Counted from the stretch's first letter, positions 1 to 32,000 are shown. The stretch: DNA of 32,000 nucleotides from Dubosiella newyorkensis (GCF_001945605.1 NZ_MPKA01000056.1:1-32000), one strand, 5' to 3'. Made by a program: numbers and translations. Notes: generated by a model from the letters alone, not told the origin.

Positions 1-36
1 TCCCTGCCTTGAAGCTCTCTGCCTCAACGCTCACTC

Positions 37-65
37 ATATTACCATGAATGAACTGTTCTGTCAA
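37..65 (-). promoter_or_regulatory. Near-consensus sigma-A-type promoter firing leftwards out of the window
   Basis: The reverse complement of 37-65 reads TTGACA-gaacagttcattcatgg-TAATAT: a perfect -35, a 17-nt spacer and a TGn-extended -10. The transcribed target lies beyond the left edge. Confidence 0.4.
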
Positions 66-196
66 CACTTTTTTCAATATTTTTTGAATATTTTTAGAGG
101 ACAGATTGAGGAGAAACCTCAACAGCTCGTTTAGAATACCTCCATCTCCCTATAAAGTCAACTAAAAAACACACAAATTTACTTCCTTTTCTCTAT

Positions 197-1162
197 TTAC
201 TTGCGAAGATCTTGATAACCTCGTAAACCATAAGCGGCTCTTGCGCTCTTGCATGCAATTACGATCGCCTGCTCCAATGCTTTGACCGCTAAAACACCAA
301 CCGCATTTAGATCTGCTTCAACAAGATTTGAAGCCATCGCAAACACCGTATCCCCGTCATTCGAAGTATGAACTGGTCGGATCGTTCGCGCCAAGGCATC
401 TTGAGCCAACATAGCCACTTTTTTCATTTGGGCTTTCGTGAGATCAGCATTTGTGAGAATACAACCAATCGTAGTGTTTTCATGCGCTCGAGTTTCGCTC
501 ATTTGAACAAGGAGTTGTTCTGAATCCAAAAAGCTTAGCGTTTCAGGATCATATAAGCCGCTAACATGCTTCGAAGAATTTGGTTCATACACATCCCCAC
601 AAGCATTGACGGCAACCACAGCACCTACTTGTAGTTTACCGGTCTGGAAAGCACAAGAACCTATACCCGACTTCATCGAATGATCAAAACCAAGTAATTT
701 CCCGACACTCGCTCCTGTTCCTGCTCCAAAATTTCCATGTTCGAAATTAAAATCTTGCGCGGCTATGCATGCCTCTCTTCCCATCGCTTTTGTTGGATAA
801 GCGTTCGGATCCCCGACTCCTAAATCAAATAGCGAAGCTTGACATACGATCGGAACGATCAATTCTCCAAGCTGAAAGCCAACACCAAGTTCTTTCAAAT
901 ACTCCATTACGCCGCTAGATGCTTCTAAGCCAAAGGCTGACCCCCCAGATAAGAGAACGGCATGGATCTTCTGAACCATATTTTCTGGCCTAAGCAGATC
1001 CGTTTCTCTTGTGGCTGGACCACCGCCTCTAACATCGACACCAGCACTCGCTCCCTTGGGCGCTATGATCACCGTACATCCCGTCGCCCCTTCTATATTT
1101 TGAGCATTTCCGATCTTGAATCCTTCAATTTCCTGGATTTTGATTTCCTTCATCCTATTCAC
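197..1162 (-). CDS. P1 family (DmpA/BapA-like, formerly S58) self-processing aminopeptidase
   Basis: 321-aa ORF with GGGPATRETD, LSGGSAFGL and ENTTIGCILTNA...HTSNDGDTVFA motifs typical of DmpA/P1 peptidases. GAGGTG Shine-Dalgarno 5 nt upstream of the ATG. Confidence 0.85.
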   Translation of the reverse strand: MNRMKEIKIQEIEGFKIGNAQNIEGATGCTVIIAPKGASAGVDVRGGGPATRETDLLRPENMVQKIHAVLLSGGSAFGLEASSGVMEYLKELGVGFQLGELIVPIVCQASLFDLGVGDPNAYPTKAMGREACIAAQDFNFEHGNFGAGTGASVGKLLGFDHSMKSGIGSCAFQTGKLQVGAVVAVNACGDVYEPNSSKHVSGLYDPETLSFLDSEQLLVQMSETRAHENTTIGCILTNADLTKAQMKKVAMLAQDALARTIRPVHTSNDGDTVFAMASNLVEADLNAVGVLAVKALEQAIVIACKSARAAYGLRGYQDLRK

Positions 1163-1233
1163 CTCTATATTATTTAATTTTATAAAATGGATCTAAATGA
1201 TACAAATGAAAATCTATAAAACAACCTCTTTAC

Positions 1234-1253
1234 AATTGAAAATATTTTCAATT
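1234..1253. promoter_or_regulatory. 20-bp perfect palindrome AATTGAAAATATTTTCAATT in the divergent peptidase/opp control region (candidate operator)
   Basis: AATTGAAAAT is the exact reverse complement of ATTTTCAATT. It overlaps a minus-strand TATAAT (1256-1251) and lies 17 nt upstream of the opp -35. Confidence 0.4.
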
Positions 1254-1269
1254 ATAGCTTTGAAAACTG

Positions 1270-1299
1270 TTGCATTCGTCCAATGAATGTTGATAATAT
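1270..1299 (+). promoter_or_regulatory. Candidate opp operon promoter
   Basis: TTGCAT (1270-1275), then a 17/18-nt spacer, then TGaTAATAT (1291-1299). Sits about 40 nt upstream of the oppA ATG. Confidence 0.4.
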
Positions 1300-1340
1300 T
1301 TTTATACGTGTTCATCACATGAGCACAAGGAGGAGATTTT

Positions 1341-2960
1341 ATGAAGAAATTCTTATCATTGGCATGCAGTTCAATGATGCTGATTTCTCTTGTGGGCTGT
1401 GGATCCGGAACAGATACTAAAAAATCTGACGGAAACTATGTCACGCTCGCAAAAGAAAATGATGTAATCTCCATGGACTCTAGATACGCGACAGATGGTA
1501 TGTCTTTTGAAATGATCGCTGCTACTGTTGAAGGTTTAGAAACTATGGACAAGGATGGAAATATTGTTCCTGCACTTGCAGAATCTTATGATGTGAGCGA
1601 TGATGGCTTGATCTATACGTTCCATTTAAGAGACGCGGAATGGTCTAATGGAACGCCAGTAACAGCTGCAGATTTCACTTACGCATGGAATGCGACGATC
1701 AAAAATCCAGCCGCTGAATATGCCTACTTATTCGGATCGGATGGAGCATGTATCAAAAACGCGGATGAGATCTTAGCGGGCGATACAGATTTAGATCTTG
1801 CGATCGCAGCCAAAGACGAAAAAACATTCGAAGTGACACTCGCAAAACAATGTCCATACTTCGTTAGCTTGATGTCCTTCCCAGTTTTCTATCCTGTAAA
1901 TGAAGCCTATGCCACAGAGCAAGGTGACCAATATGGATTGACAGCCGACAACTTGATCGCGAACGGTCCGTATAAATTAGTGAGCTGGAGCAAAGGAAAT
2001 AAACTTGTATTAGAAAAGAACGATTCGTATTGGGATGCAGAAAACGTGAAAGTCGACGGCATCAACGTCAATATCGTTCCAGAAGCAAGTACATCGGCTC
2101 TTGATTTCGAAAGCGGAAATACCGATTTCACAAAATTAAACTCTACACTTGTTGACAAATACAAAGATAACGAAGCTTATACAACTGTGCTTGAAGGATA
2201 TTTATGGTATCTACAGTACAATTATGACAACAAATACCTTCAAAACGAAAACTTAAGAAAAGCGATTTCTACAGTGATCGACCGTGAAGACCTCGTAGAA
2301 AACGTATTGAAAGACGGTTCGATCGTGTGTGGAGGTTTTGTCCCTGAAGCTCTTGCGACAGGCCCTGATGGAAAAGATTATCGTGAGTCTGCTCCAGAGT
2401 ATTTCAATATGCTTGCTGAAGACGGATTGAAAGCCGCACAAGAATATTGGGATAAAGCAAAACAAGAACTCGGTGTTAACGAAATCACGCTTTCTCTTCT
2501 TTATGAGCCATCAGATCCTTCGAAACCAGCCGCTGAGTTTATTCAGTCTCAGATTCAGCAATTAGACGGAATCACAGTAGAGATGGTCAGCCAAGAAAAA
2601 GAAAATCGTATCGAAAAACAAAAAGCCGGCGATTTTGATATGGTATTGACACGCTGGGGTCCAGACTACGCCGATCCTACAACATATTTGAACCTAATGT
2701 TGACTGGAAATTCGTATAACTATGGAAAATATTCCAGCAAAGAATACGACGCGAAAATGGCGGAAGCAGCGAATGCGAAATCCGATGAAGAACGTTGGCA
2801 AAAACTTCAAGAAGCTGAAGCGATCTTGATGAACGACGTTCCTGTAGTCGGCGTATTCCAAGTAGGTGGAGCAAGCCTTATCAACAAAAATGTTACAGGT
2901 ATCGAAAACCATGCCGTAGGTGTTCCTTATATCTACAAAAATCTAGAAAAGAAAGAATAA
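1341..2960 (+). CDS. oppA: Peptide ABC transporter substrate-binding lipoprotein (Opp/Dpp/App family 5 SBP)
   Basis: 539 aa. Signal peptide ending in the lipobox LVGC. The overall SBP_bac_5 layout is recognisable. AAGGAGGAG RBS. First gene of a five-gene ABC operon. Confidence 0.9.
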   Translation: MKKFLSLACSSMMLISLVGCGSGTDTKKSDGNYVTLAKENDVISMDSRYATDGMSFEMIAATVEGLETMDKDGNIVPALAESYDVSDDGLIYTFHLRDAEWSNGTPVTAADFTYAWNATIKNPAAEYAYLFGSDGACIKNADEILAGDTDLDLAIAAKDEKTFEVTLAKQCPYFVSLMSFPVFYPVNEAYATEQGDQYGLTADNLIANGPYKLVSWSKGNKLVLEKNDSYWDAENVKVDGINVNIVPEASTSALDFESGNTDFTKLNSTLVDKYKDNEAYTTVLEGYLWYLQYNYDNKYLQNENLRKAISTVIDREDLVENVLKDGSIVCGGFVPEALATGPDGKDYRESAPEYFNMLAEDGLKAAQEYWDKAKQELGVNEITLSLLYEPSDPSKPAAEFIQSQIQQLDGITVEMVSQEKENRIEKQKAGDFDMVLTRWGPDYADPTTYLNLMLTGNSYNYGKYSSKEYDAKMAEAANAKSDEERWQKLQEAEAILMNDVPVVGVFQVGGASLINKNVTGIENHAVGVPYIYKNLEKKE

Positions 2961-5039: not shown

Positions 5040-6182
5040 ATGACGAAAAAGAAAAAGATCTTGAAGATCCGCGATTTAGATATATCATTCAAAACTGACA
5101 ACGGTGAAGTCAAAGCCGTTCGAGGCGTTGATCTCGATTTACACGAAGGCGAAACGATCGCTATCGTTGGTGAATCTGGCTCCGGAAAGTCCGTGACCAC
5201 AAAAGCTGTTATGGGAATTCTAGCCTCCAATGGTGTCATTAACAAAGGCTCCATTGAATTTACCTACACCGATCTTTCCAAAGAACGGATTGCTGAGGTA
5301 ACCCAAAAATACGATGGCGTGATCCCTGAAGGATACGCGAAAGAAGAAGAAATCAAAACTGTCGATATCACGCAACAATCCAAAAAGTTTATCCAATCCG
5401 AAATTCGAGGACGGAGGATCGCCATGGTCTTTCAAGATCCTATGACTTCCTTGGATCCGACGATGACAATCGGAAAACAAGTGATGGAAGCGATGCTTTT
5501 CCACTATAAGATCCCCAAAAAAGAAGCGTACGCCCGTGCTGTACAGCTTCTTGAACTCGTCGGCATCACAGATGCAGAAAAACGAATGAAAAATTATCCG
5601 CATCAACTTTCTGGAGGAATGCGACAAAGAATCGTTATCGCGATCGCGCTTTCTTGCGATCCAGAAATCTTAATCTGCGACGAGCCAACGACCGCCCTTG
5701 ACGTGACGATCCAAGCCAAGATCTTGGAACTGATCAAAGATATTCAAAAAAAGAAAAACCTATCCGTGATCTATATCACGCATGATCTTGGCGTCGTTGC
5801 TAAAGTCGCTGATTTTGTCAATGTCATGTATGCAGGAAGGATCATCGAAAAAGGAAGTGTGAACGAAATCTTCTATGGTCCTAGACACCCATATACGTGG
5901 GGCCTTCTTGCTTCGCTGCCCGATGTCGACACAGCCGGCGATGAACTCTACACAATTCCAGGCACTCCTCCAAATCTATTAAAAGAAATCAAAGGGGATG
6001 CTTTCGCGCCAAGAAATCCATTCGCTTTGAAGATCGATGAAAAGATCGCACCTCCAATGTTTGAAATCACGCCAACACATCATGTCGCATCTTGGCTTGC
6101 CGCTCCGAATGCTCCAAAAGTAGAAATGCCGCAAGACTTGAAAGCACGTATAGAAAAAAATAGAAAAGAGGCGAATTGGTAA
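5040..6182 (+). CDS. oppD: Peptide ABC transporter ATP-binding protein
   Basis: Walker A GESGSGKS, signature LSGGMRQR, Walker B ILICDEPTTALD and a C-terminal oligopeptide-ABC extension. AAAGGAG RBS. Carries an insertion of about 30 aa between Walker A and the Q-loop. Confidence 0.9.
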   Translation: MTKKKKILKIRDLDISFKTDNGEVKAVRGVDLDLHEGETIAIVGESGSGKSVTTKAVMGILASNGVINKGSIEFTYTDLSKERIAEVTQKYDGVIPEGYAKEEEIKTVDITQQSKKFIQSEIRGRRIAMVFQDPMTSLDPTMTIGKQVMEAMLFHYKIPKKEAYARAVQLLELVGITDAEKRMKNYPHQLSGGMRQRIVIAIALSCDPEILICDEPTTALDVTIQAKILELIKDIQKKKNLSVIYITHDLGVVAKVADFVNVMYAGRIIEKGSVNEIFYGPRHPYTWGLLASLPDVDTAGDELYTIPGTPPNLLKEIKGDAFAPRNPFALKIDEKIAPPMFEITPTHHVASWLAAPNAPKVEMPQDLKARIEKNRKEANW

Positions 6183-7189: not shown

Positions 7190-7498
7190 TTATTTTAGGT
7201 ATTTGATCGATTCGGCGATAAAGGTTGGGTTATGGAAAGTCCGCCCATCTTTTTCATAGGGTCTTGTCGAAATTCTACCTTTTGCACTGATCCATGTCCC
7301 TTCGGAAGCGACATTGCATAAAGTTTCAGCAATCCCACGCCAAAGCTCAACAGGAATTAAATCAAACTCATAAACACCTTCAGAGTTCGCGAATGGACGC
7401 TGCACTTTTAAAAGGACATTTGCCACTTTGATCCCGCTCACCGTTTCTTTCAAGGTCGGTATTTCTGCTACTTGACCAACAACACAAAATAAATTCAT
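7190..7498 (-). CDS. ssb: Single-stranded DNA-binding protein paralogue (OB fold only, no C-terminal tail)
   Basis: 102 aa. Colinear by eye with the SSB OB domain (VVGQV..P.L...SG..VA...L.V.RPF....G....D...V..W...AE...). Ends straight after the OB fold. AAGGAG RBS. Confidence 0.75.
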   Translation of the reverse strand: MNLFCVVGQVAEIPTLKETVSGIKVANVLLKVQRPFANSEGVYEFDLIPVELWRGIAETLCNVASEGTWISAKGRISTRPYEKDGRTFHNPTFIAESIKYLK

Positions 7499-7546
7499 AA
7501 AACATTGCTCCTTTTCTGAAAGAACTACTCGTTCTTTCCGAGACGT

Positions 7547-7575
7547 ATAGTATTAAATCTTATAGAACTTATCAA
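7547..7575 (-). promoter_or_regulatory. Candidate promoter of the ssb-like gene
   Basis: The minus strand reads TTGATA (7575-7570), a 17-nt spacer, then TACTAT (7552-7547). It is followed by an 8-bp 5'-UTR hairpin GAAAGAAC/GTTCTTTC at 7518-7538. Confidence 0.45.
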
Positions 7576-7580
7576 AAGCG

Positions 7581-7669
7581 CTATTCTATGTAATTCGCAA
7601 ATAAATCCTTAAATTACATAGAATTATTCCCTCTGATTTATATGATAATTATGAAATTACATAGAATAG
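7581..7669. repeat. Three copies of a 13-15-bp motif AATTACATAGAAT(AG): candidate operator set
   Basis: 7655-7669 is AATTACATAGAATAG. 7612-7626 is AATTACATAGAATTA. 7581-7595 is the exact reverse complement of the 15-mer. Centre spacings are 31 and 43 bp. Confidence 0.6.
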
Positions 7670-7770
7670 AACGAAATGAAACTCTGTTTTAAGTTCTTTC
7701 ACAAATCTAAAACAAATCTTGAAACATCGTTTTTATCGAACGAAACTCTATACTTTTTTAAAAACACATT

Positions 7771-7779
7771 TGCTATACT
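7771..7779 (+). promoter_or_regulatory. Extended -10 element (TGcTATACT) upstream of the GH1 gene
   Basis: TGCTATACT lies 30 nt upstream of ATG 7809. No good -35 is present. Confidence 0.3.
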
Positions 7780-7808
7780 GAAAACAGATACAAGAAAAGG
7801 AGAATACT

Positions 7809-10096: not shown

Positions 10097-10131
10097 AAAA
10101 ACGGATTAGATAAAACCTAGTCCGTTTTTTA
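10095..10131. terminator. Bidirectional intrinsic terminator between the DeoR gene and the methyltransferase gene
   Basis: ACGGATTAG-ataaaac-CTAGTCCGT hairpin flanked by an A-run and a T-run. Overlaps the stop codon of the minus-strand gene. Confidence 0.7.
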
Positions 10132-17065: not shown

Positions 17066-17088
17066 GCGGAATCTTTCCGCTTTTTGTT
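17064..17088 (+). terminator. Intrinsic terminator ending the deoC operon
   Basis: GCGGA-atctt-TCCGC hairpin followed by TTTTTG. Overlaps the stop codon. Confidence 0.7.
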
Positions 17089-17115
17089 TGCAGAAAAAAC
17101 GGGCTGTGCTATACT
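17088..17115 (+). promoter_or_regulatory. Candidate promoter of the GT14-like gene
   Basis: TTGCAG, a 16-nt spacer, then TGcTATACT. Confidence 0.4.
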
Positions 17116-17136
17116 GACGTTTAACGAGGTAAAAAA

Positions 17137-18015
17137 ATGAAAATCGCATATTGTATCCATTATTTAGGAAAATCCTTCGATGAGCTTTCGGAAAATGTTG
17201 ATCAGCTCATCGACCAAGGAGACGATGTATTTGTAATGATCAACGACGACGATTTAAGAGATCAAATGGTGATCACGTACGCGGATGAACCAGCCTTACA
17301 TGTCTCCCAGATCCAGCAACAAGCACTTCATGGCGACCTCTCGCTGCCAAGAGGGCAGATCGTGCAGCTAAGAAATGCTTTGGATGCTCAGATCAATGAA
17401 AAAAAATCGTATGACCGTTTTATTCTTCTGACCGATGGTATGCTTCCTCTTAAATCTAAAGAAGAAATCGTACGCTACCTAGACCAATATCCAGATCAAG
17501 ATATTTACTATATCAAGGCGACATCGCAAGAAGATCCTTCCTTAAAAAAGCGCTTTGAAAACTATGCCTTTTTCACCAATACGCTAAGCTTTCAAAAAAG
17601 CAAAATGGTCAAAGGCATGAATACGATTACCTCAAAGCTCGTTCATAATTTTAAGAAAAGGGAAATCGAAGATACGCTCGTCCTTTCATATCCATGGTTC
17701 ATCTTGACAGAAAAGAGCGCTCGAGCTTTAGGGGATGCATTCCCGTATTGTTCGAATACGTTTAAAATGTGCCTCTATCCGGAAGAATTGGCGATCGCGA
17801 CGATGCTGCGTAAGTTTTCCGATGTCAAGCATCATAACGAATCCGTTTGGGTCGTTGGAAAAAATGGCGAATATCAATTTCAAGAACCGATCGAACCGCT
17901 TAGCGAAGAAGCTTTGCGTTCCCATCCAAAGGCTTTGTTTGGGGCCACGATCCATCCAGAAACGAACCTTTCGATCTATCAAGATTATTTTGATGCATAT
18001 TCCATCAACCAATGA
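17137..18015 (+). CDS. Hypothetical protein, distantly resembling GT14 Branch-type (core-2/I-branching) glycosyltransferases
   Basis: 292 aa. MKIAYCIHYLGK...DVFVMINDD and FILLTDGMLPLKSKEEIVRYL parallel the bacterial Branch-domain layout (MKIAYLI.AH...FFIH.D and LLSG.D.PLKS..EI). GAGGT RBS. Monocistronic between two terminators. Confidence 0.4.
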   Translation: MKIAYCIHYLGKSFDELSENVDQLIDQGDDVFVMINDDDLRDQMVITYADEPALHVSQIQQQALHGDLSLPRGQIVQLRNALDAQINEKKSYDRFILLTDGMLPLKSKEEIVRYLDQYPDQDIYYIKATSQEDPSLKKRFENYAFFTNTLSFQKSKMVKGMNTITSKLVHNFKKREIEDTLVLSYPWFILTEKSARALGDAFPYCSNTFKMCLYPEELAIATMLRKFSDVKHHNESVWVVGKNGEYQFQEPIEPLSEEALRSHPKALFGATIHPETNLSIYQDYFDAYSINQ

Positions 18016-18031
18016 TTCGACTTAAAAATAT

Positions 18032-18063
18032 AAAAGATCGCTGTTTTGAACAGCGATCTTTTT
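18032..18063. terminator. Bidirectional intrinsic terminator between convergent genes
   Basis: 12-bp perfect stem AAGATCGCTGTT/AACAGCGATCTT flanked by A- and T-runs. Confidence 0.85.
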
Positions 18064-19444: not shown

Positions 19445-19492
19445 TTAGATCACTCCATTTCTTTCTAACCTATTTTACGTGCATTCCTAAGG

Positions 19493-20737: not shown

Positions 20738-20773
20738 TTTTATTCCTCTTTTTTCTTCTTTTTAGTATAACGC

Positions 20774-20806
20774 AAAAAAGCCGAGACATTCATCTCGACT
20801 TTTTTT
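20774..20806. terminator. Intrinsic terminator ending the feo operon (bidirectional shape)
   Basis: The minus strand reads GTCGAGA-tgaatg-TCTCGGC followed by TTTTTT. The hairpin overlaps the last codons of the 60-aa gene. Confidence 0.7.
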
Positions 20807-20972
20807 CTTGGTGGATATCGTCTCTGATCGCATCCCAATCAATGTGGGAACAACTCGATCCACAGCTTGAACAATCTCCATGACAAGATGATCTAGGCTT
20901 TTTTAATACGCGGATGATCAAGATCACGACTATACTTAAAATGATCATAACAATCACATCGGCAATATTCAT
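20790..20972 (-). CDS. FeoB-associated Cys-rich membrane peptide
   Basis: 60 aa. One N-terminal TM helix followed by CHGDCSSCGSSC. Lies directly downstream of feoB with a GGGAGGA RBS. Confidence 0.8.
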   Translation of the reverse strand: MNIADVIVMIILSIVVILIIRVLKKPRSSCHGDCSSCGSSCSHIDWDAIRDDIHQEKKSR

Positions 20973-20994
20973 TTTCGATATCCTCCCTTCACGC

Positions 20995-23629: not shown

Positions 23630-23644
23630 TTATCCCGATTCCTC

Positions 23645-23694
23645 CTTTATGTTAGAGTATACTAACTTCAAAGTTAGTATACTCTAACATAAAG
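23645..23694. promoter_or_regulatory. 50-bp perfect palindrome (24-bp arms, 2-nt spacer): candidate double operator at the feo promoter
   Basis: CTTTATGTTAGAGTATACTAACTT-ca-AAGTTAGTATACTCTAACATAAAG. The arms are exact reverse complements, checked base by base. Confidence 0.7.
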
Positions 23695-23704
23695 TTATAT
23701 TCAA
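23676..23704 (-). promoter_or_regulatory. Candidate feo operon promoter
   Basis: The minus strand reads TTGAAT (23704-23699), a 17-nt spacer, then TATACT (23681-23676). The -10 lies inside the distal palindrome arm. Confidence 0.5.
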
Positions 23705-23775
23705 CTAACTTTTCGCCAAGCACTCGCAATTCTTTTTTAAACAAGATATGATAGGATGAAGCCAAGAGATAGATT

Positions 23776-23973
23776 ATGAAAACGATACGCAATGGATGCG
23801 CGATGCTGGGCCTTATTGGAATGATGATCATTCTGGTCCACCGCCTATACACACCTCTGCCTGAAGAAGTGATGAAGATCACTTCCTTGATTTTATCCAT
23901 TTGTCTTTCGATGGTTCTATTTTGCTCATTCACTTTATGGAATGAGAAACGCCGTCAAAAAAGGCACTTGTAG
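23776..23973 (+). CDS. Possible small two-TM membrane protein (65 aa)
   Basis: Two hydrophobic segments (AMLGLIGMMIILV, ITSLILSICLSMVLFCSFTLW) and a basic C-terminus. A plus-strand terminator follows. The SD is weak and there is no recognisable homology. Confidence 0.35.
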   Translation: MKTIRNGCAMLGLIGMMIILVHRLYTPLPEEVMKITSLILSICLSMVLFCSFTLWNEKRRQKRHL

Positions 23974-24030
23974 TCCAAGCAACGATCCGGCTATTTCCCT
24001 CCTCCTACGTTACATTCTCCGGATCTTGGT

Positions 24031-24058
24031 GGCTGATTTATGATCAGCCTTTTCTTTT
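24031..24058 (+). terminator. Intrinsic terminator upstream of tex
   Basis: GGCTGAT-ttatg-ATCAGCC hairpin followed by TTTTCTTTT. Confidence 0.7.
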
Positions 24059-24084
24059 GGCATAATGAAAGAAAGAGAGAACCT

Positions 24085-26202
24085 ATGCAAGAAATTTTAA
24101 AAATACTTACAAACGATCTAGGTCTTCCATCCAAAAACATTCAAGCCGTGCTCGATCTTCTTCAAGAAGGAGCAACGATTCCCTTTATCGCCCGGTATCG
24201 AAAAGAAAAAACAGGCAATATGAATGAAGATCAAATCAAAGAGATCGAGTCTCAATTCTCATATCAAAATAATCTCATGCAACGAAAAGAAGACGTGATC
24301 CGATTGATCGAAGAAAAAGGCCTGCTCAACGAAGAGCTTAGATCGAAGATCCTGAACGCAAGAAAACTCGTCGAAGTGGAAGATCTTTATCGTCCCTATA
24401 AAGAAAAGAAGAAAACAAAAGCTTCCGAAGCGATCGCGAAAGGATTGTTGCCTCTTGCTGAAGCGATCCTTTCTCAAAAACAAACATCTTTAAAAGATCT
24501 GGTTTTTGCTTATTCAAAACTGCCAGCAGAAGAAGCGTTGGAAGGTGCCGGCTACATCATCGCGGAAAAAATCAGCGAAGACGCCGATCTTAGAGCTTGG
24601 ATCCGAGATCAGATCTTAAAATATGGCTCGATCGCCTCTAAGATCAAAAAAGACGCCGAAGATCCAAAGCATACCTATGAGATCTACTACGATTTTTCTT
24701 GCCGTCTTAAGCGGCTAAAACACTTCCAAACGCTCGCCTTGAATCGAGGAGAAAAAGAAAAGATCTTGAATGTGCACCTTGAATATGATCTTGATTCGAT
24801 CCAACGCTATGCCAGCCAACGCTGGATCCGTTCTTCTTCCACTGCCCAACCGTTTTTGCAGGACGCGATCAAAGATGCGCTCAAACGATTGATCTTGCGA
24901 AGCATCCAGCGCGAGATCCGCTCTATGCTTTCAGAAGAAGCGGATGATAAAGCGATCCAAACGTTCTCGATCAACTTGGAACATCTGCTGTTGACCCGTC
25001 CTTTCAAAAAAGCAAGAGTGCTCGGATTTGATCCCGCTTTTCGTACTGGGTGCAAGCTTGCGGTGCTCGATGAGAATGGAAATGTCTTGGCGATCGATGT
25101 GATCTATCCAACCGCGCCGCATAACGATTTTGAAGGCTCAAAAAAGAAGATCGTCTCTTTATTGAAAAAATATAATGTTGACTTGATCGCCATTGGCAAT
25201 GGGACTGCCTCAAGAGAATCAGAACGCTTCGTTTCAACGGTATTGAAGGAATTCCCTTCGGTCAAATATGTGATCGTCTCTGAAGCGGGCGCCAGCGTAT
25301 ATTCCGCCTCGAAGCTTGCGCAAGAAGAATTTCCCGATCTGAGTGTCGAAAAGCGTAGCGCCATCTCGATTGGAAGAAGGATCCAAGATCCTTTGAGCGA
25401 GCTTGTCAAGATCGAGCCTAAATCGATTGGTGTGGGCGAGTACCAGCACGATGTGAATCAAAAAAAGCTTCAAGAGATGCTAGACTTTACGACCCAAAAG
25501 ATCGTCAATCAAGTGGGGGTTCCGATCAATACCGCCTCGAAAAGCATTCTTTCTTATGTTTCTGGATTGAACAAGCGCGCCATCAACGCCTTGTACGCAT
25601 ATAAAGAGAAGACGCCAATTACATCTAGAAAACAGATCCGAGAGATCCGAGGGATCAGCGATACCACCTATGAACAGTGTGTTGGCTTTTTGCGGATCCC
25701 AGAAAGCGAGAATATATTGGACCGTACAGGAATCCATCCGGAAAGCTACGCTCTTACCCAAGAGCTATTGGACCGCTTAGGTCTTGATTTAAAAGACCGC
25801 CAAGAACGGCACTTTTTAAGAAAGCTAGCGATCGCCAATATCGATCAGCTAGCCCTCGACCTAAAAAGCGATCCGTATACGATCCAAGATATCATCAAGG
25901 AACTCAGCCACCCTGGACGGGATGTTCGAGAGACATTGGAAGCTCCTCTCCTTAAGTCGGGAATCCTAGAGCTTAAAGATCTTACGATCGGTATGAAGCT
26001 CGAAGGAACTGTCCGCAACGTTGTCAGCTTTGGCGCTTTTGTCGATATTGGCCTCCATGAGGATGGCTTAGTCCATATATCAAAACTGGCTGATCGTTTC
26101 GTATCGGATCCCAATGAGATCGTCCATGTCGGTGATATCGTCAGTTGTACAGTGATCGGGATCGATCCAATAAAAGAAAGGGTGCAGCTGTCGCTTCTAT
26201 GA
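24085..26202 (+). CDS. tex: Tex family transcription accessory protein (YqgF/HhH/S1 domains)
   Basis: The N-terminus LLQEGATIPFIARYRKEKTGNM is the Tex signature. C-terminal S1 domain GMKLEGTVRNVVSFGAFVDIG. ATG 24085 fits the conserved N-terminus. The track start is 24040. Confidence 0.9.
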   Translation: MQEILKILTNDLGLPSKNIQAVLDLLQEGATIPFIARYRKEKTGNMNEDQIKEIESQFSYQNNLMQRKEDVIRLIEEKGLLNEELRSKILNARKLVEVEDLYRPYKEKKKTKASEAIAKGLLPLAEAILSQKQTSLKDLVFAYSKLPAEEALEGAGYIIAEKISEDADLRAWIRDQILKYGSIASKIKKDAEDPKHTYEIYYDFSCRLKRLKHFQTLALNRGEKEKILNVHLEYDLDSIQRYASQRWIRSSSTAQPFLQDAIKDALKRLILRSIQREIRSMLSEEADDKAIQTFSINLEHLLLTRPFKKARVLGFDPAFRTGCKLAVLDENGNVLAIDVIYPTAPHNDFEGSKKKIVSLLKKYNVDLIAIGNGTASRESERFVSTVLKEFPSVKYVIVSEAGASVYSASKLAQEEFPDLSVEKRSAISIGRRIQDPLSELVKIEPKSIGVGEYQHDVNQKKLQEMLDFTTQKIVNQVGVPINTASKSILSYVSGLNKRAINALYAYKEKTPITSRKQIREIRGISDTTYEQCVGFLRIPESENILDRTGIHPESYALTQELLDRLGLDLKDRQERHFLRKLAIANIDQLALDLKSDPYTIQDIIKELSHPGRDVRETLEAPLLKSGILELKDLTIGMKLEGTVRNVVSFGAFVDIGLHEDGLVHISKLADRFVSDPNEIVHVGDIVSCTVIGIDPIKERVQLSLL

Positions 26203-27150: not shown

Positions 27151-29408
27151 TCTTGTTTTTTAGTTTTTGTGGCTCGTGGTTTCTTTTCGAATTCGAGGAT
27201 CTTGAAGCCAAAAAAGAAATGGCCTAAAAACACTTGATCTTGAAGACGGCCTTTTGCTTTGAACGGTTTTCCTTTTTTAGAAATGAATTCACACTCGATC
27301 TCTTCGCCATTCAAAAGGCGTTCCACTTCTTCATCGCTGAAACGATGTTGCGAGAATACGCGTTTGAATTTGACGTTCTTTCCATTCCAGACACCGGTCG
27401 CATATTCCGTGTCATCTACGATCGGGGTTCCATCTAAATTGAAATATTGTTCTGGCTTGAAGCCATAAAACTTCCGTTTTTTATACGTTTGCGCTTCGAG
27501 CTTTCCTCGGGCCTTGACTTCTTTGCCCGCTTTGTTCGTGAATTGGATCTCGATCTCTTCGCCATTCTTGAGCGCTTCGATCTGTTCAGGCGTAAAGCTC
27601 GTTCCAGAGAATTCTTTTTTGAATTCGACTTCTTTTCCATCGATCACCGCTTTTTCATAATCATCTGGATTTCGTTCGTATGTTTTATGGACGATCTTTT
27701 TCCCATTTTTATTCATTTGATCGAGGTCTTCCAAAACAAGCTGCTCCATTTGGTCTAAAAACGCGTTTGGATCGGATTTCCCTTGACCGACTTCATGCAT
27801 TTGTTTGACGAGCTGTTCGGTCATTTTTAAATCGCCAATATTGGTTCCAGCTAAAAGCTGATACGACATTTGACCATAATCGCTCATCGATAATTTCCCG
27901 CGATTCTCAACGAGAAGCGGAAAGCGCGTATTCGCGTTGGTCACGTCCGCATAAATGCTTGTACGAGTAGCACCTGTACCTACTTCCCGTTTCGCGAGCT
28001 GCTTCATGAGCCATTTCATCGTTGGAGCCACCGGTTTTGGAGGGAAGCCTTCATAAGTGAATGGCGCTGCTTCCTTTCCAAGCTTTTTCGTATTTTCGTC
28101 TTGTTCTTCGGCATCCGAATCATACACAGCTTTCCAGCCTTTTTTCTTCGGGATGTTCGCTATCGCTTTATAGTTCGGATACTTTTCGAGATGTCCTTTT
28201 TGCTGCTCGTATTCATAGTCTTCGGCGAGCATCGCTAAAAAGTTCTTCGCAAGCAGCTTATAGATCTTCTCGGCGCCTGGTCCATATTTTCGCAAACTCT
28301 CTAAGGAAGCAGGTACATTCGGGCCTGGTCGATTGGCCCCATGGGCTCCTTTCGGTTTAACGTGGCTCGCTCTTGATTTTCGATAGGTCAAGAGTTCTTT
28401 TTTTACGCCAACTAGGTCCGCGATCGCATCCGCTAAAGGAAGGAGTTCTTGGAATTGCTCTGGGGTAATATTCTTATCTTCCGTTCTTGGATAAGAAACG
28501 ATTTGATCTTCATACATCTTTTGGTAGGTCGATAAGACAGTTCTCGCTTTCAAGCCTTGAGAAGAGAGCTGTGCTGAAAGGCCAGCTAAGTCGAGCAGCT
28601 GAGGGGGTTTTGTCTTTTTCATCGTCGTCGAATCAACGATGACAGCGCTATTTTCCAAATCGATATCAACTTCTTCAGGTGTCTTGAATTTCTCGGCTTT
28701 TGAATTAGAGAATACATTTCCGTTTTCGTCTTTGAAGCGAAGTTCATAAAAGGGTTCTTTTTTGTAGCTTTCCACTTTCTTCAGCTGGTCGCCGACCATT
28801 TTGACCATCGCGGATTTGAGCCTGCCTTGCCTAAGAACGGACTTTCCGTCACCATTGGCTGTGGCAATCCTAGTGAACTGCATGGATAAATAGTCCCATT
28901 TTGAGCGGAAATCTGCTTTGACATAATCTAAGTCGGTTTCTTTATTTTCAAGCGGTTTACGCTCTTTAAACGCCTTTTGGATCGAAGATTTGCTTTCGTC
29001 GACAAAATACATTCTCGAAATTTTTTTTGGCTTGAGATTCAAGCCATCGATGATTTCCCACGCGAGAAGCTCTCCTTCTCCAGAAGGGTCATCGTCGGTC
29101 GCAATGATCAATTCTTCACAATCACTTAGATCCTTTTTTATTTGTTTGAGGATGTCAGACGCTTCTTTCGTTTGTTTCTTCTTCCATTCGAAATCTTCGC
29201 GTTTCCAAGGAAGATGCTCTGTCTTCCAGGATCTATATTTCTTTTTCAGATCGTCTTGGACTTGTTCATATGGATCATAAAGTTCATAGAGATGTCCGCG
29301 GGCATGAGTGATCCTATAGTGTTCTCCGTTATATGTTCCTTCTTTTCCACCAAGCGCTTTGGCGAAGTTGTTCGCTGCGCTTGCTTTCTCTGTTAAAATT
29401 CCAATCAT
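27129..29408 (-). CDS. Divergent type IA DNA topoisomerase (Topo III-like) with two C-terminal Toprim_Crpt-type repeats
   Basis: Toprim motifs ILTEKAS and IIATDDDPSGEGE. Active-site Tyr motif VSYPRTED (Y306). AHGANRP corresponds to AHEAIRP/AHHAIIP. Two homologous modules of about 70 aa lie at residues about 583-652 and 668-740. Confidence 0.8.
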   Translation of the reverse strand: MIGILTEKASAANNFAKALGGKEGTYNGEHYRITHARGHLYELYDPYEQVQDDLKKKYRSWKTEHLPWKREDFEWKKKQTKEASDILKQIKKDLSDCEELIIATDDDPSGEGELLAWEIIDGLNLKPKKISRMYFVDESKSSIQKAFKERKPLENKETDLDYVKADFRSKWDYLSMQFTRIATANGDGKSVLRQGRLKSAMVKMVGDQLKKVESYKKEPFYELRFKDENGNVFSNSKAEKFKTPEEVDIDLENSAVIVDSTTMKKTKPPQLLDLAGLSAQLSSQGLKARTVLSTYQKMYEDQIVSYPRTEDKNITPEQFQELLPLADAIADLVGVKKELLTYRKSRASHVKPKGAHGANRPGPNVPASLESLRKYGPGAEKIYKLLAKNFLAMLAEDYEYEQQKGHLEKYPNYKAIANIPKKKGWKAVYDSDAEEQDENTKKLGKEAAPFTYEGFPPKPVAPTMKWLMKQLAKREVGTGATRTSIYADVTNANTRFPLLVENRGKLSMSDYGQMSYQLLAGTNIGDLKMTEQLVKQMHEVGQGKSDPNAFLDQMEQLVLEDLDQMNKNGKKIVHKTYERNPDDYEKAVIDGKEVEFKKEFSGTSFTPEQIEALKNGEEIEIQFTNKAGKEVKARGKLEAQTYKKRKFYGFKPEQYFNLDGTPIVDDTEYATGVWNGKNVKFKRVFSQHRFSDEEVERLLNGEEIECEFISKKGKPFKAKGRLQDQVFLGHFFFGFKILEFEKKPRATKTKKQEKKEKSA
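27189..27662 (-). repeat. Two tandem coding repeats (C-terminal topoisomerase repeat modules)
   Basis: GKEVEFKKEFSGTSFTPEQIEALKNGEEIEIQFTNKAGKEVKARGKLE aligns with GKNVKFKRVFSQHRFSDEEVERLLNGEEIECEFISKKGKPFKAKGRLQ. Confidence 0.75.
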
Positions 29409-29523: not shown

Positions 29524-29886
29524 TTACGCGTTTGCGATCGCGTTTTTTGCTTCTTCGCAAATTTTTGCGAACGATTCAGCATCGTGGATCGCCATTTCAG
29601 AAAGCATCTTTCTGTTGATTTCCACGTTCGCAAGCTTTAATCCATGCATAAGACGCGAATAAGAAAGATCATGCATATGCGCAGCTGCGTTGATACGAGT
29701 GATCCAGATCTTGCGCATATTTCCTTTCAATTTGCGACGGTCATTGTACGCATACTTGAATGAATGCATGACTTGCTCATTGGCAGTTTTATAAAGAGTA
29801 TGTTTCGAACCAAAATACCCTTTTGCTAGCTTTAATATCTTTTTTCTTCTTCTGCGGCTTACAGTACCACCTTTAACTCTTGCCAT
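29524..29886 (-). CDS. rplT: 50S ribosomal protein L20
   Basis: [29 protein letters not shown] is the canonical L20 N-terminus. Confidence 0.97.
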
Positions 29887-30119: not shown

Positions 30120-30659
30120 TTATTTCTTTTTTGGCGCCAACACCGTGGACATGGTGTTTCCTTCAAGCGATGGTCTTTTTTCGATCGCTGCGATGTCTTT
30201 CACTTCATCCAAGAATTGATTCATGATTTGTTTTCCAACTTCTTGGCGAGTCATCATGCGTCCGCGGAATCTCATATCAATCTTTACTTTCATGCCCGAC
30301 TCGATCCATTTTTTCGTTTGACGAACTTTCGTTTCAAAATCATGCGTATCGATGATCGGCGATAAACGTAGAGCTTTGATTTCAACGGTATGTTGTTTAC
30401 GTTTCGCTTCCTTCGCTTTTTTCTGCTGTTCAAAATGGTAACGGCCATAATCTAAGATCTTACATACAGCCGGACGAGCCTTAGGAGCTACACACAATAA
30501 ATCGAGATTTTGACGATACGCGATGTCCAATGCTTCTCTCTTTGATAAAACTCCTAACTGTTTTCCATCCGAATCAATGACAAGAAGTTCTCTAAACGGG
30601 ATTTTTTCGTTAAAAAGATCATCATTGACATTGTTTGGGGCAACTTTTCTGTTATTGAT
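30120..30659 (-). CDS. infC: Translation initiation factor IF-3, probable non-AUG (ATC) start
   Basis: The track ORF (TTG 30530) lacks the conserved N-domain. The in-frame upstream sequence encodes ...NEKIPFRELLVIDSDGKQLGVLSKREAL. No ATG/GTG/TTG lies between the in-frame stop (30669-30671) and 30530. ATC at 30659 sits 8 nt after AAAGGTAGG. Confidence 0.8.
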   Translation of the reverse strand: MNNRKVAPNNVNDDLFNEKIPFRELLVIDSDGKQLGVLSKREALDIAYRQNLDLLCVAPKARPAVCKILDYGRYHFEQQKKAKEAKRKQHTVEIKALRLSPIIDTHDFETKVRQTKKWIESGMKVKIDMRFRGRMMTRQEVGKQIMNQFLDEVKDIAAIEKRPSLEGNTMSTVLAPKKK

Positions 30660-30676: not shown

Positions 30677-30711
30677 CATAAAAAGAAAATGGGTACACAA
30701 AGGCACCCATT
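30677..30711 (-). terminator. Attenuator terminator inside the infC leader
   Basis: The minus strand reads AAUGGGUGC-cuuugu-GUACCCAUU (9 bp including one G-U) running into UUUUCUUUUUAU, just upstream of the infC RBS. Confidence 0.65.
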
Positions 30712-30806: not shown

Positions 30807-30812
30807 TTTACG

Positions 30813-30841
30813 ACTATACCACAATCCCAAAGAGGATGCAA
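30813..30841 (-). promoter_or_regulatory. Candidate infC operon promoter
   Basis: The minus strand reads TTGCAT (30841-30836), a 17-nt spacer, then TGgTATAGT (-10 at 30818-30813). Confidence 0.55.
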
Positions 30842-30849
30842 TAGGAAAA

Positions 30850-30876
30850 CAAAAAAAAGAACCATGCCTGGTTCTT
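30850..30876 (-). terminator. Intrinsic terminator after tRNA-Lys
   Basis: The minus strand reads AGAACCA-ggca-TGGTTCT followed by a run of eight T residues. Confidence 0.8.
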
Positions 30877-30888
30877 CGATTTCAAAAA

Positions 30889-30964
30889 TGGTGGACCCTT
30901 AGGGATTCGAACCCTAGACCCACTGATTAAGAGTCAGTTGCTCTGCCAACTGAGCTAAGGGTCC
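30889..30964 (-). tRNA. tRNA-Lys (anticodon CTT), CCA encoded
   Basis: The reverse complement is GGACCCTTAGCTCAGTTGGCAGAGCAACTGACTCTTAATCAGTGGGTCTAGGGTTCGAATCCCTAAGGGTCCACCA. It folds by hand into a 76-nt cloverleaf: 7-bp acceptor stem, anticodon stem ACTGA/TCAGT, loop CTCTTAA, T-loop TTCGAAT. Confidence 0.93.
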
Positions 30965-31010
30965 TTGATTTGCTTAGAAATAATAACATAGATAAGGATC
31001 AGAAACAAGA

Positions 31011-31036
31011 TAAAAAGAGCGAAAAATTCGCTCTTT
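31011..31036 (-). terminator. Intrinsic terminator after the CHAP-domain gene
   Basis: The minus strand reads AGAGCGAA-ttt-TTCGCTCT followed by TTTTTA, 3 nt after the stop codon. Confidence 0.8.
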
Positions 31037-31038
31037 CT

Positions 31039-32000
31039 CTATTTTTCCATTTTTTCCGTGCGATGGGCCATAGCCCGGCTCATTTTTTTCTTTCTGGTGA
31101 CTCTTTTCATTTCGACGGGTTTTGCTTTTACCGGCTCGTCCTTTGAAGATGTTTCTTCAAGATCGCAAACTCCTTTTTTCGGGATCGCGAACACGATATC
31201 CGGATAAGCGTTTTTATAATCTTCCCAGCGCACTTTATGGACCCAAATATTTCCGCCTTTTCCATTGAACATGACGTTTCCTTCGGAGATCCATAAATAT
31301 TCTCCATCAAAGGCTTCCACGAAGCCTACATGTCCATATTGTGGCATGAGCGTATTCCGTTCCATACTGAATGTCGCGCCAGCCGCTGGCGTGCTGCTTA
31401 ATTCAAACTTGTCCGAATGGGCTCGCACGATCTCGATCGCATTCGTCTTTCCATTTCCACGCGCGCCACTATCAAAACCATACACTTGATGGAAGCGTGC
31501 CCAAGCGAACCACGTGCATTGACCGACCATGAACGGATTCCCATTGCCTAAAAAATCATTGAGATTGCTCGTCATAAAATCGTCGAGCTTCATCGCCTTC
31601 TTCAAATTTCCGGCATACCCTTTCGCAAGCAGATCGGTAGGATGATACCATGTATTCTTTTCATACGAGATCGTAGGCTTCGTCTCTTGCGGTTTGTTGA
31701 CATCTACTTTCTCAGAAGGCAAAACACTCGTTTGTTTATTCGAATCCACGACCGGCTTCATTTCCTCTGGCTTGATCGTTTCCTCCGGTTTGACCGTTTC
31801 TTCCGGTTTGATCGTTTCTTCCGGCTTTATTTCTTCTTCTGGCCTATCTGGCTTTTCCTCGCCCTCTTCTTGTCCTGGCTCTTCTTCAGGCGTTTCTGGC
31901 TTTTCAGGCGTGGATGGCGTTTCTGGGGATATAGGAACGCTTGGCTCCTGAACATCTCCTTTCGTTGAAGGAGGCGTCGTTGTTTCTGTGCTTGTTGTCG
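31039..32000 (-). CDS. CHAP-domain cell-wall hydrolase/amidase with a Pro/Glu/Lys/Thr-rich repeat linker; 5' end outside the window
   Basis: CHAP catalytic motifs GQCTWFAWARF (Cys) and GHVGFVE (His). I translated the frame upstream of the track's Met (31761) by hand. It stays open to position 32000, encoding (KPEETI)n and PE-rich sequence. Confidence 0.75.
   Translation of the reverse strand, partial: TTSTETTTPPSTKGDVQEPSVPISPETPSTPEKPETPEEEPGQEEGEEKPDRPEEEIKPEETIKPEETVKPEETIKPEEMKPVVDSNKQTSVLPSEKVDVNKPQETKPTISYEKNTWYHPTDLLAKGYAGNLKKAMKLDDFMTSNLNDFLGNGNPFMVGQCTWFAWARFHQVYGFDSGARGNGKTNAIEIVRAHSDKFELSSTPAAGATFSMERNTLMPQYGHVGFVEAFDGEYLWISEGNVMFNGKGGNIWVHKVRWEDYKNAYPDIVFAIPKKGVCDLEETSSKDEPVKAKPVEMKRVTRKKKMSRAMAHRTEKMEK
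31762..31851. repeat. 18-bp tandem coding repeat (about 4-5 units) encoding KPEE(T/I)(I/V)
   Basis: Units are ttcctctggcttgatcgt, ttcctccggtttgaccgt, ttcttccggtttgatcgt and ttcttccggctttatttc, followed by a degenerate unit. Confidence 0.8.

Follow-up and report, generated by a model that had tools for sequence, protein, structure and literature searches.

Codon usage combined with a codon-context bias as the probable source of the GATC surplus in Dubosiella newyorkensis

INTRODUCTION

Dubosiella newyorkensis is a much studied species of the mouse gut. In a 32,000-nt stretch of its DNA (the window, i.e. the whole stretch that was analysed) a first-pass annotation, which took the host to be Firmicutes-like, as this Firmicute indeed is, described the nested palindromes GATC, CGATCG and GCGATCGC as strongly over-represented and HIP1-like. 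The annotation offered extreme codon or codon-pair usage on the one hand, and selection or biased repair linked to methylation of GATC or CGATCG on the other, as possible causes. In cyanobacteria, the HIP1 octamer is enriched 15–300-fold, in each of the three frames as well as outside coding sequence, and its copies show periodic spacing and stronger conservation than control palindromes (PMC5861425); it is accompanied by GATC and CGATCG methyltransferases (PMC5861425, PMC4390886). The question raised by this locus is therefore whether a palindrome is being favoured as DNA, or whether the same letters are produced by the way in which proteins are encoded.

MATERIALS AND METHODS

The coding set comprised the 30 genes of the window, within which 429 of the 447 GATC sites lie. 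The codon shuffle null consisted of 1000 synonymous permutations within each gene. Fractions of G-ending codons were counted where the preceding codon has a synonymous choice, and polymorphism was compared at 14 strain loci. With an extension of 7.7 kb past the right end of the window, the D. newyorkensis DNA covered amounts to about 40 kb of one genome.

RESULTS

GATC exceeds every null model and its nested forms do not

Exact counting yields 447 GATC, 47 CGATCG and 7 GCGATCGC in the window, at a base composition of 42.1% GC. The earlier hand counts were close to these values, as the number of CGATCG sites and the number and positions of the octamers were reproduced exactly, the GATC counts in four intervals came to 15, 19, 9 and 9 (16, 19, 9 and 10 by hand), and GC had been put at 43% by eye. 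The GATC count is 3.78 times the zero-order (base-composition) expectation and 1.41 times the maximal-order Markov expectation, the second rank among the 256 tetramers, and the 429 coding sites compare with 236.7 ± 10.6 in the synonymous-codon shuffles (z = 18, 1.8-fold). The excess is present in 30/30 genes and on both strands, and five other assemblies show it again (O/E 4.4–4.6) in the 7.7 kb that follow the window on its right. GATC is thus over-represented, as the annotation held, against all three nulls. Since codon-preserving shuffles, which it had put forward as its own test, fail to reproduce the GATC density, the observation stands and only its interpretation changes.

The nested enrichment, on the other hand, is not borne out. 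CGATCG occurs 47 times against 45.0 expected under the maximal-order Markov model (CGATC × GATCG / GATC), and GCGATCGC 7 times against 5.1 under the same model and 2.4 ± 1.3 in the codon shuffles; only against base composition does the octamer appear about 30-fold enriched. Within the window, the left and right flanks of GATC are statistically independent of each other, and together with the conditional expectations this independence rules out a hierarchical, HIP1-like enrichment. All seven octamers lie in frame as GCG-ATC-GCn and none is intergenic, so that the annotation's remark that they often encode Ala-Ile-Ala applies to 7/7 (Table 1). Given the abundance of NCG codons and of codons that start with G, both longer palindromes follow from GATC (nCG|ATC|Gnn).

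Table 1. Octamer copies and other features of the window
Feature	Position	Strand	Gene or region	Remarks
GCGATCGC	1800..1807	+	oppA-like gene	Ala-Ile-Ala
GCGATCGC	5640..5647	+	oppD-like gene	Ala-Ile-Ala
GCGATCGC	17791..17798	+	gene 17137-18015	Ala-Ile-Ala
GCGATCGC	24430..24437	+	tex	Ala-Ile-Ala
GCGATCGC	25828..25835	+	tex	Ala-Ile-Ala
GCGATCGC	28420..28427	-	topoisomerase gene	Ala-Ile-Ala
GCGATCGC	29534..29541	-	rplT, L20 gene	Ala-Ile-Ala
tex	24085..26202	+		densest long gene: 57 GATC, 26.9 per kb
Longest intergenic stretch, 310 nt	7499..7808			no GATC; within the largest GATC-free gap, 7430-8042
Intergenic or small-ORF region	23630..24084		upstream of tex	five GATC: 23826, 23877, 23984, 24022, 24042
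18-bp tandem repeat	31761..31843	-	N-terminal part of CHAP-domain gene	unit contains GATC

The surplus resides in one reading phase and is shared by non-palindromic neighbours

When the coding sites are sorted by phase, nnG|ATC accounts for 297 against 114.7 in the within-gene codon shuffle (z = 20.9), the strongest outlier among phased tetramers; GAT|Cnn gives 117 against 101.5, and nGA|TCn 15 against 20.1, with 15/63 Gly/Arg-Ser dipeptides written as GATC. The underlying codon usage is itself favourable, as ATC makes up 71% of Ile codons and GAT 72% of Asp codons. Beyond this, the preceding codon ends in G at a fraction of.69 before ATC,.58 before CTG,.53 before CTC and.52 before ATT, the baseline being.26. 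Before ATC, codons ending in A, C or T are depleted alike (in phase, AATC.48, CATC.55 and TATC.56; in four-fold families,.12/.11/.09 against.26/.23/.28), in-phase GATT is enriched 1.47-fold, and ATA after G is depleted more than ATT. The non-palindromic tetramers GATT, GCTC and GCTG behave in phase like GATC. The bias thus keeps a fixed phase once codon usage and protein sequence are controlled for, and related non-palindromic pairs share it, as is characteristic of codon context. The wider codon-context landscape of the window shows nnG|Cnn to be preferred, and nnG|Gnn and nnT|Ann to be avoided. Our literature search for GATC codon pairs returned nothing specific.

A DNA-level process would leave a different distribution. 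An orphan Dam-type or M.Sau3AI-type methyltransferase might favour GATC as a double-stranded motif, with coding constraint channelling sites into the cheapest phase and the methylated sites serving replication, repair or self-marking, as has been proposed for HIP1 with DmtA and the CGATCG methylases. The rank of nnG|ATC among phased tetramers would suit such a process, as would the higher frequency of G before ATC than before ATT (OR 2.1, P = 5e-4), which is found despite the general avoidance of nnGnnC. A C-over-T increment of similar size is, however, found for the non-palindromic pair CTC/CTT (OR 1.8), and the X|ATZ table of four-fold families is nearly independent, the row effect alone giving 255/297 sites, with a residual GATC-specific interaction of OR 1.9–3.4 (chi-square P = 0.02 in these families). 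Under a methyltransferase, moreover, every synonymous route to GATC should gain. The step from GAC|C to GAT|C carries no GATC-specific effect (GAT versus GAC before a C-starting codon, OR 1.54; Asn control AAT|C, 2.9), and at the phase-3 odds ratio about 39 nGA|TCn sites are predicted. The likeness of GATT, GCTC and GCTG in phase, and CGATCG and GCGATCGC at the level given by GATC, argue in the same direction. Two phases without enrichment, the comparison of Asp with Asn and the intergenic counts given below rule out uniform DNA-level selection on GATC, and we regard the methyltransferase explanation as improbable.

GATC occurs near chance frequency in non-coding DNA

All intergenic DNA of the window (2382 nt) contains 12 GATC, against 7.4 (zero-order) or 9.8 (Markov), which is about chance; the nominal O/E of 1.2–1.6 (P = 0.07) comes from this small sample. 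It leans towards the methyltransferase explanation, but the 12 sites fall far short of the roughly 25 that this explanation predicts, at an enrichment of 2.6–3.8-fold. In the adjacent 16S rRNA region 6 GATC are found against 6.7 expected, and intergenic GATT and AATC together number 28 against about 28 (hand base-composition arithmetic). The enrichment is thus absent, within the limits of the small intergenic sample, from the non-coding DNA of the same genome, as befits a codon-context effect. The annotation had stated that the palindromes are enriched only in coding DNA on the strength of a single GATC in eight intergenic intervals; that count is correct (1 against 3.8 expected, P = 0.11), but the remaining intergenic intervals hold 11 more, and the overall picture is one of chance level and not of depletion. 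Two regions call for comment on their assignment. Upstream of tex, ORFs of 59 and 65 aa are called in some assemblies, and the annotation's intergenic set took in only 23630-23775 of this region. GATC sites 31774 and 31810 belong to the 18-bp repeat of the CHAP-domain gene and are hence coding; this gene extends past the window end.

Within the window, GATC sites are neither regularly spaced nor specially conserved

Nearest-neighbour gaps between GATC sites are slightly over-dispersed (CV 1.14 against 0.99 for random placement), not regular, which speaks against a control of density or spacing, and no period other than the 3 nt of the codon is seen (within 32 kb; HIP1 periods run from kb to 100 kb). 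Single-nucleotide polymorphisms fall on the outer third positions of GATC at 17/570 (3.0%) and on other third positions at 292/8738 (3.3%), with 24 losses and 26 gains of GATC among strains. In comparison with the relative L045 (73% amino-acid identity), conservation of G-ending codons gives a Mantel-Haenszel OR of 1.7 before Ile and 2.4 elsewhere, and conservation beyond controls of the HIP1 type was not found for GATC, on which it was tested as the octamers are too few. A site-specific function of GATC is ruled out by this lack of extra conservation against L045 and of reduced polymorphism at the strain loci, and the same observations, with the irregular spacing, weigh against a methyltransferase. 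Together with the two unenriched frames, the unenriched non-coding DNA and the GATC-predicted counts of CGATCG and GCGATCGC, they leave the annotation's HIP1-like palindrome, as well as its methylation-linked selection or repair, without support, the traits in question being those by which cyanobacterial HIP1 is defined (PMC5861425). Its alternative, extreme codon or codon-pair usage, agrees with a bias that occupies the single phase nnG|ATC, recurs before ATT, CTC and CTG and is absent intergenically.

The polymorphism data also bear on a mutation or repair bias of the transcribed or sense strand, which would put a G in front of ATY and a C behind GAT, become visible only at silent third positions and involve no selection on translation. 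Sites one step off GATC do change towards it, at 9/55 for the T of G|ATT and 13/188 for the third base of nnH|ATC against 3.3% overall, the GATC sites themselves being unprotected. This asymmetry does not discriminate, as any equilibrium with 297 GATC and 55 GATT yields the same (7 versus 9–10 C/T differences). Such a bias would further accord with a lineage shift in GC, as D. newyorkensis has moved to 42% whereas its relatives stand at about 28–34%, and with expression, on which no sign of dependence is seen: rplT, rpmI and infC pooled have 8/14 G-ending codons against about 0.66 overall (14 codons, too few to settle the matter). In tex, identified as encoding the Tex family protein of D. newyorkensis, G is the final base of 39/50 codons that precede ATC/ATT and have a synonymous choice. 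One mutational pathway by itself would, however, hit one neighbour preferentially, whereas A-, C- and T-ending codons are equally depleted; ATA after G is more depleted than ATT; and intergenic DNA is not enriched in GATC, GATT or AATC. Phase restriction alone cannot separate translation from a sense-strand bias, because the base before ATY is silent only at third positions. On balance we hold the strand-bias explanation to be unlikely.

Relatives span moderate enrichment to near-total avoidance

Across the family GATC ranges from 0.25–0.4-fold to 3.8-fold, i.e. from near-total avoidance through moderate enrichment in relatives to the value in the window. AT-rich relatives are nearly devoid of in-phase G|ATC (1/78, 2/140, 0/72 and 19/526). 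Among the avoiding relatives, L049, with a GATC O/E of 0.40, carries a Sau3AI-family system, the endonuclease lying beside a Dcm-type C5 methylase. GATC is therefore a live restriction target in the family, a circumstance that would favour a methyltransferase; relative to codon-aware expectation the target is under-represented in these relatives, and the sign is opposite in the window. Related Bacilli show a weaker preference for G before Ile (1.4–2-fold), even among near-avoiders of G|ATC. In 100 kb of Escherichia coli K-12, GATC has an O/E of 1.04–1.19 and codons end in G at.36 before ATC,.35 before ATT and.34 overall, i.e. without preference, and this control rules out Dam methylation as a sufficient cause. 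A search of the window and its extension (about 40 kb) found no restriction or DNA-methylase gene, the sole methyltransferase gene there (10129-11382) being that of the 23S rRNA m5U enzyme RlmD, and the literature search yielded no relevant paper on methylation or GATC biology in Dubosiella.

The presence in the family of enzymes for C5 methylation of GATC would also suit a very-short-patch type of repair, in which T:G mismatches in GATT or AATC at 5-methylcytosine GATC are turned into GATC, like Vsr at CCWGG in E. coli, and the GATC-creating changes do fall at the outer positions. Loss of AATC and GATT only is predicted by such repair. CATC and TATC are depleted equally with AATC, and in-phase GATT is up; pyrimidine-ending codons before ATC are halved, which purine transitions cannot do; and intergenic enrichment is lacking. 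The tetramer ratios given above rule out transition-only repair of this type, and we consider the explanation as a whole very improbable indeed.

DISCUSSION

The GATC surplus of D. newyorkensis is probably the product of codon usage and a strong, lineage-specific codon-context bias, not of a DNA-level palindrome system. Codon usage alone would raise GATC to about 2.2 times the base-composition expectation, which is the level in other Bacilli of 43–47% GC, and the context preference, with G-ending codons at 52–69% before Ile AUC/AUU, would add a factor of 1.8, the two synonymous preferences being nearly independent and hence multiplying. The preference may act in translation, where a G-ending codon in the P-site would sit beside an A-site AUY read by tRNA-Ile(GAU), and codon-pair bias would here take an extreme, lineage-specific form. 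The preference is perhaps visible in D. newyorkensis because this lineage, unlike its AT-rich relatives, would be under no pressure to avoid GATC. Against a translational reading stand the window's three translation-factor and ribosomal-protein genes, rplT, rpmI and infC, where the effect is not stronger among 14 codons. In addition, nnG|ATC runs counter to a widespread and conserved tendency to avoid nnGnnC codon pairs (PMC2585594). There may also be a small DNA-level component, given the nominal intergenic excess.

Codon-pair, or codon-context, bias in bacterial ORFs was reportedly described by Gutman and Hatfield in 1989. It has been analysed by Tats, Tenson and Remm in 2008 (PMC2585594), and the present case resembles it in that the third base of a codon is non-randomly associated with which codon follows, in that the effect is limited to coding DNA and found in every gene, and in that the general preference for nnG|Cnn and avoidance of nnG|Gnn and nnT|Ann (PMC2585594) recur. 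It differs in that its main class, nnG|AUC, is of the widely avoided type, in its unusual strength (69% versus 26%) and unusually narrow taxonomic spread, the effect peaking in D. newyorkensis, being less pronounced in its sister lineages and absent from E. coli, and in its side effect, the 3.8-fold excess of a palindrome that is a target of restriction and methylation. With HIP1 the locus shares the core GCGATCGC, its apparent excess over base composition and the frequent Ala-Ile-Ala, but here the octamer and hexamer stay at the GATC-predicted level, all octamer copies occupy one frame with none intergenic, and GATC sites are neither specially conserved nor, within 32 kb, regularly spaced. 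Palindrome avoidance under Sau3AI/MboI/DpnII enzymes concerns the same tetramer, under strong frequency pressure in the family, with the opposite sign in D. newyorkensis. Dam-methylated E. coli likewise tolerates a high density of GATC in coding DNA, but its O/E is near unity and it has no G-ending preference before ATC/ATT.

A bolder reading, to which we give little credence, is that the lineage turned the restriction target of its family into a positively maintained in-frame dicodon. It could have done so through a resident GATC methyltransferase, in which case densely methylated GATC would be useful at the DNA level and coding constraint would mask the other frames, or through a peculiarity of tRNA-Ile(GAU) or ribosome decoding, with a preference for a 5′ G that would outweigh the nearly universal avoidance of nnGnnC. 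The residual interaction (OR 1.9–3.4) and the intergenic O/E of 1.2–1.6 give this reading a small probability.

Under the preferred reading, that of codon usage multiplied by codon context, the locus is a cautionary case, in which GATC is nearly four-fold and its nested forms 9–30-fold over-represented without a palindrome-specific process. Scans for HIP-like or methylation motifs need two controls in addition to base composition or codon usage, a maximal-order expectation and a phase-aware null. In practical terms, enzymes that cut at GATC would cleave D. newyorkensis DNA about every 70 bp, GATC methylation, if any, would mark it very densely, and the nnG-AUY context is to be heeded in gene design for this species. 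Within one family, restriction pressure and codon-context preference act on the same dicodon, and GATC ranges accordingly from avoidance to a nearly four-fold surplus.

GATC is over-represented in one reading phase

Exact counting in the window (GC 42.1%) gives 447 GATC, 47 CGATCG and 7 GCGATCGC sites; the seven octamer starts reported in the first-pass annotation were all recovered exactly, and each of its four local GATC hand counts lies within one of the exact value. GATC occurs at 3.78 times the base-composition expectation and at 1.41 times that of a maximal-order Markov model, ranking second among the 256 tetramers. For the 30 protein genes defined in the window (29.1 kb, in addition to one tRNA-Lys), 1000 synonymous-codon permutations were made within genes with protein sequence and codon usage held constant. 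Coding DNA holds 429 GATC sites versus 236.7 ± 10.6 in the permutations (z=18; maximum 267), and as these shuffles fall short of the observed density, the over-representation claimed from inspection is real. The excess is present in 30/30 genes, on both strands, and recurs in the 7.7 kb to the right of the window end in five other assemblies (observed/expected, O/E, 4.4–4.6).

When resolved by reading phase (a hyphen marking the codon boundary), nnG-ATC is observed 297 times versus 114.7 expected from codon shuffles (z=20.9, the largest deviation among phased tetramers), whereas GAT-Cnn gives 117 versus 101.5 and nGA-TCn 15 versus 20.1. A G-ending codon precedes 59% of ATC codons compared with 20.7% of codons overall, and predecessors ending in A, C and T are similarly depleted (0.48, 0.55 and 0.56). 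GAT is favoured over GAC ahead of a C-starting codon with an odds ratio (OR) of 1.54, while the control pair AAT/AAC gives a larger value of 2.9, and Gly/Arg-Ser dipeptides are written through GATC in 15/63 cases. Motif-level pressure on GATC at the strength of the nnG-ATC phase was rejected, as the ∼133/150 Asp-C sites and ∼39/63 Gly/Arg-Ser sites that it predicts are not seen.

The preference extends beyond the palindrome

Among preceding codons for amino acids with a synonymous choice, 69% end in G before ATC and 52% before ATT, and likewise 58% before CTG and 53% before CTC (overall 26%), with 21–34% before ATA and ATG and 8–14% before many codons starting with G or T. The increment of C over T in the following codon is alike for CTC/CTT (OR 1.8) and ATC/ATT (OR 2.1), and the preference for G before Ile is not specific to the GATC palindrome. 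In four-fold families, preceding third base and Ile codon are nearly independent (chi-square P=0.02), and the preference for G before an Ile codon, multiplied by the ATC share of Ile codons (71%), predicts 255 of the 297 nnG-ATC sites. Two distinct synonymous preferences, multiplied together, thus essentially account for the frequency of GATC, leaving a slight residual interaction; codon or codon-pair usage, the alternative that the annotation had also offered, is the correct reading.

In the window, third-position G is preferred ahead of codons that start with C and of some that start with A, and avoided ahead of those starting with G or T. This landscape overlaps the general codon-pair rules, in which nnGCnn is preferred and nnGGnn and nnUAnn are avoided (Tats et al., PMC2585594), and the GATC excess is classed as codon-pair bias in a lineage-specific form of unusual strength; nnG-ATC nevertheless runs counter to the general avoidance of nnGnnC. 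Relative to codon shuffles across all window genes, other phased departures include AG-CT and CAG-C (both 2.9×), G-CTC (2.0×), the Shine-Dalgarno-like AGGA, GAGG and GGGA (0.36–0.53×) and TT-AA (0.42×).

Nested palindromes and non-coding DNA

The first-pass annotation had read the nested palindromes as a HIP1-like element confined to coding DNA. Given the GATC count, flanking bases are independent, so that CGATCG (47 versus 45.0 expected) and GCGATCGC (7 versus 5.1) form no separate signal. Their ratios to base composition alone (9× and about 30×) are inherited from GATC together with frequent NCG codons (GCG 32% and ACG 34% of their families) and G-starting codons flanking ATC; all 7/7 octamers lie in frame as GCG-ATC-GCn and encode Ala-Ile-Ala, as had been proposed.

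The eight intergenic intervals pooled in the annotation hold 1 GATC versus 3.8 expected (P=0.11), and the intervals that it omitted hold 11 more. All intergenic DNA of the window (2382 nt) thus contains 12, versus 7.4 (zero-order) or 9.8 (Markov) expected, while intergenic GATT plus AATC matches expectation (28 versus about 28, by hand arithmetic from base composition), as does GATC in the adjoining stretch with the 16S rRNA gene (6 versus 6.7). Non-coding DNA does not lack GATC, but any enrichment there falls far short of the coding level; the excess itself is indeed only coding, whereas the sites are not.

Defining properties of HIP1 (PMC5861425) are enrichment of the octamer itself, occurrence in every reading frame as well as in non-coding DNA, stronger conservation than in controls, periodicity over long distances and cognate methylases. 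The window differs on the first three: the octamer is near expectation, other phases and intergenic DNA are unenriched, and GATC sites are not conserved beyond controls. The GATC excess is accordingly not a HIP1-type element, and the headline reading was wrong.

No sign of site-level function

When 14 strain loci were aligned to the window, 461 positions proved polymorphic. The silent outer positions of GATC sites in phase vary as often as other silent third positions do (17/570 versus 292/8738; OR 0.89). The window and the other strains differ in the presence of GATC at 50 positions, dividing 24 versus 26 between the two sides, which indicates that the count is at equilibrium. Between 3284 and 28866, the T of in-phase G-ATT is polymorphic in 9/55 sites, always to C (unpolarised), silent third positions overall being 3.3% polymorphic, a pattern that fits equilibrium turnover between GATC and GATT. 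In the comparison with L045, a syntenic relative (amino-acid identity 73%), conservation of G-ending codons is no higher ahead of conserved Ile (Mantel-Haenszel OR 1.7) than elsewhere (2.4). Nor is GATC regularly spaced in the window, gaps being slightly over-dispersed (CV 1.14 versus 0.99 for random placement) with the codon period as sole periodicity. There is no sign of site-level function.

Relatives and restriction

The Tex protein of the window shares 99–100% identity with proteins assigned by NCBI to D. newyorkensis, the host being this Firmicute (Erysipelotrichaceae) of the mouse gut, and proteins identical to HtpG, L20 and OppA lie on many metagenome/MAG contigs with conserved gene order.

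GATC representation in the window and in loci of relatives
Locus	Source	GC	GATC O/E
Window	D. newyorkensis	42%	3.8
L045	Tex identity 70%, gene order as in window	about 42%	2.6
L046	Tex identity 64%	about 42%	2.5
L015, L025	other Bacilli	43–47%	1.9–2.2
L048	Tex identity 63%	34%	1.1
L049	Tex identity 62%	about 29% (28.6%)	0.40
Many other loci	AT-rich gut Bacilli and Izemoplasmatales	26–36%	0.25–1.0

The values for L015 and L025 approximate the level that D. newyorkensis codon usage alone would yield (237/108). In the AT-rich relatives (L007–L014, L016, L018–L032 and L048–L050), in-phase G-ATC is nearly absent (1/78, 2/140, 0/72 and 19/526), and G precedes ATT at the baseline rate or more often (12% versus 10% in L007–L012, up to 33% versus 13% in L048). 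As L049 encodes a Sau3AI-family endonuclease and a C5 methylase, GATC is a live restriction target in the Erysipelotrichaceae. Restriction pressure, where it acts, overrides the codon-context preference. In E. coli K-12, a Dam-bearing strain, 100 kb of sequence shows no enrichment of GATC (O/E 1.04–1.19) and no G-ending preference before ATC or ATT.

Origin of the surplus

The GATC surplus is codon usage multiplied by a coding-specific context preference, whereby Ile AUY tends to follow a G-ending codon. The preference would act in decoding, between the wobble base of the P-site codon and the AUY codon that tRNA-Ile(GAU) reads in the A site, and may be unmasked here because the lineage is free of GATC restriction. 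We regard this reading, with its presumed decoding step, as probable; its weak points are that no dependence on expression level is visible among the few codons available and that the general avoidance of nnGnnC speaks against it. A sense-strand-specific mutation bias, visible only at silent third positions, would look similar, since the base before ATY is silent only with ATY in frame; it is unlikely, given that all three alternative bases are equally depleted and intergenic DNA is flat. DNA-level selection on GATC tied to methylation is a very unlikely source of the excess, and inflation of GATC by Vsr-type repair is barely credible.

Other features

Features of the window and of neighbouring or related loci
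Feature	Locus	Coordinates	Strand	Detail
Complete bacterial 16S rRNA gene	L040, directly left of window position 1	21–1548	minus	Rfam RF00177, 1519 bits
IF3 gene	window	30120–30659	minus	called 136 aa in most assemblies, 179 aa in one
GATC in N-terminal region of IF3 gene	window	30617		
18-bp tandem repeats	window	31761–31843, 31885–31923		N-terminal part of CHAP-domain gene; 3.7–4.2 copies; six-residue repeat encoded
Sau3AI-family restriction endonuclease	L049	18482–19867	minus	496 bits versus NCBIfam equivalog NF040973 (cutoff 300); PDB 4pxg, E=3e-71
C5 cytosine methyltransferase	L049	20038–21276	plus	both L049 genes adjoin resolvase/recombinase genes (region 16423–21276)

Contigs of most D. 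newyorkensis assemblies end at the 16S gene, presumably at a repeated rRNA operon. GC skew on the plus strand is negative across 1–32000 (−0.02 to −0.11), and the share of G-ending codons away from Ile runs at 0.08–0.25 in plus-strand genes and 0.21–0.38 in minus-strand genes, consistent with a single replication arm on which the plus strand is lagging. The infC start codon is usually non-canonical, and the true IF3 start here is probably such a codon. The CHAP-domain gene extends past the window end and spans 361–377 aa in other strains, hence its repeat number probably varies.

The GATC excess is ordinary in kind, but its effect size merits a note, as does the ten-fold variation of a single tetramer across one bacterial family. 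The phase-dependent avoidance of G-ATC in the AT-rich relatives is a sharp signature that could predict GATC restriction systems.
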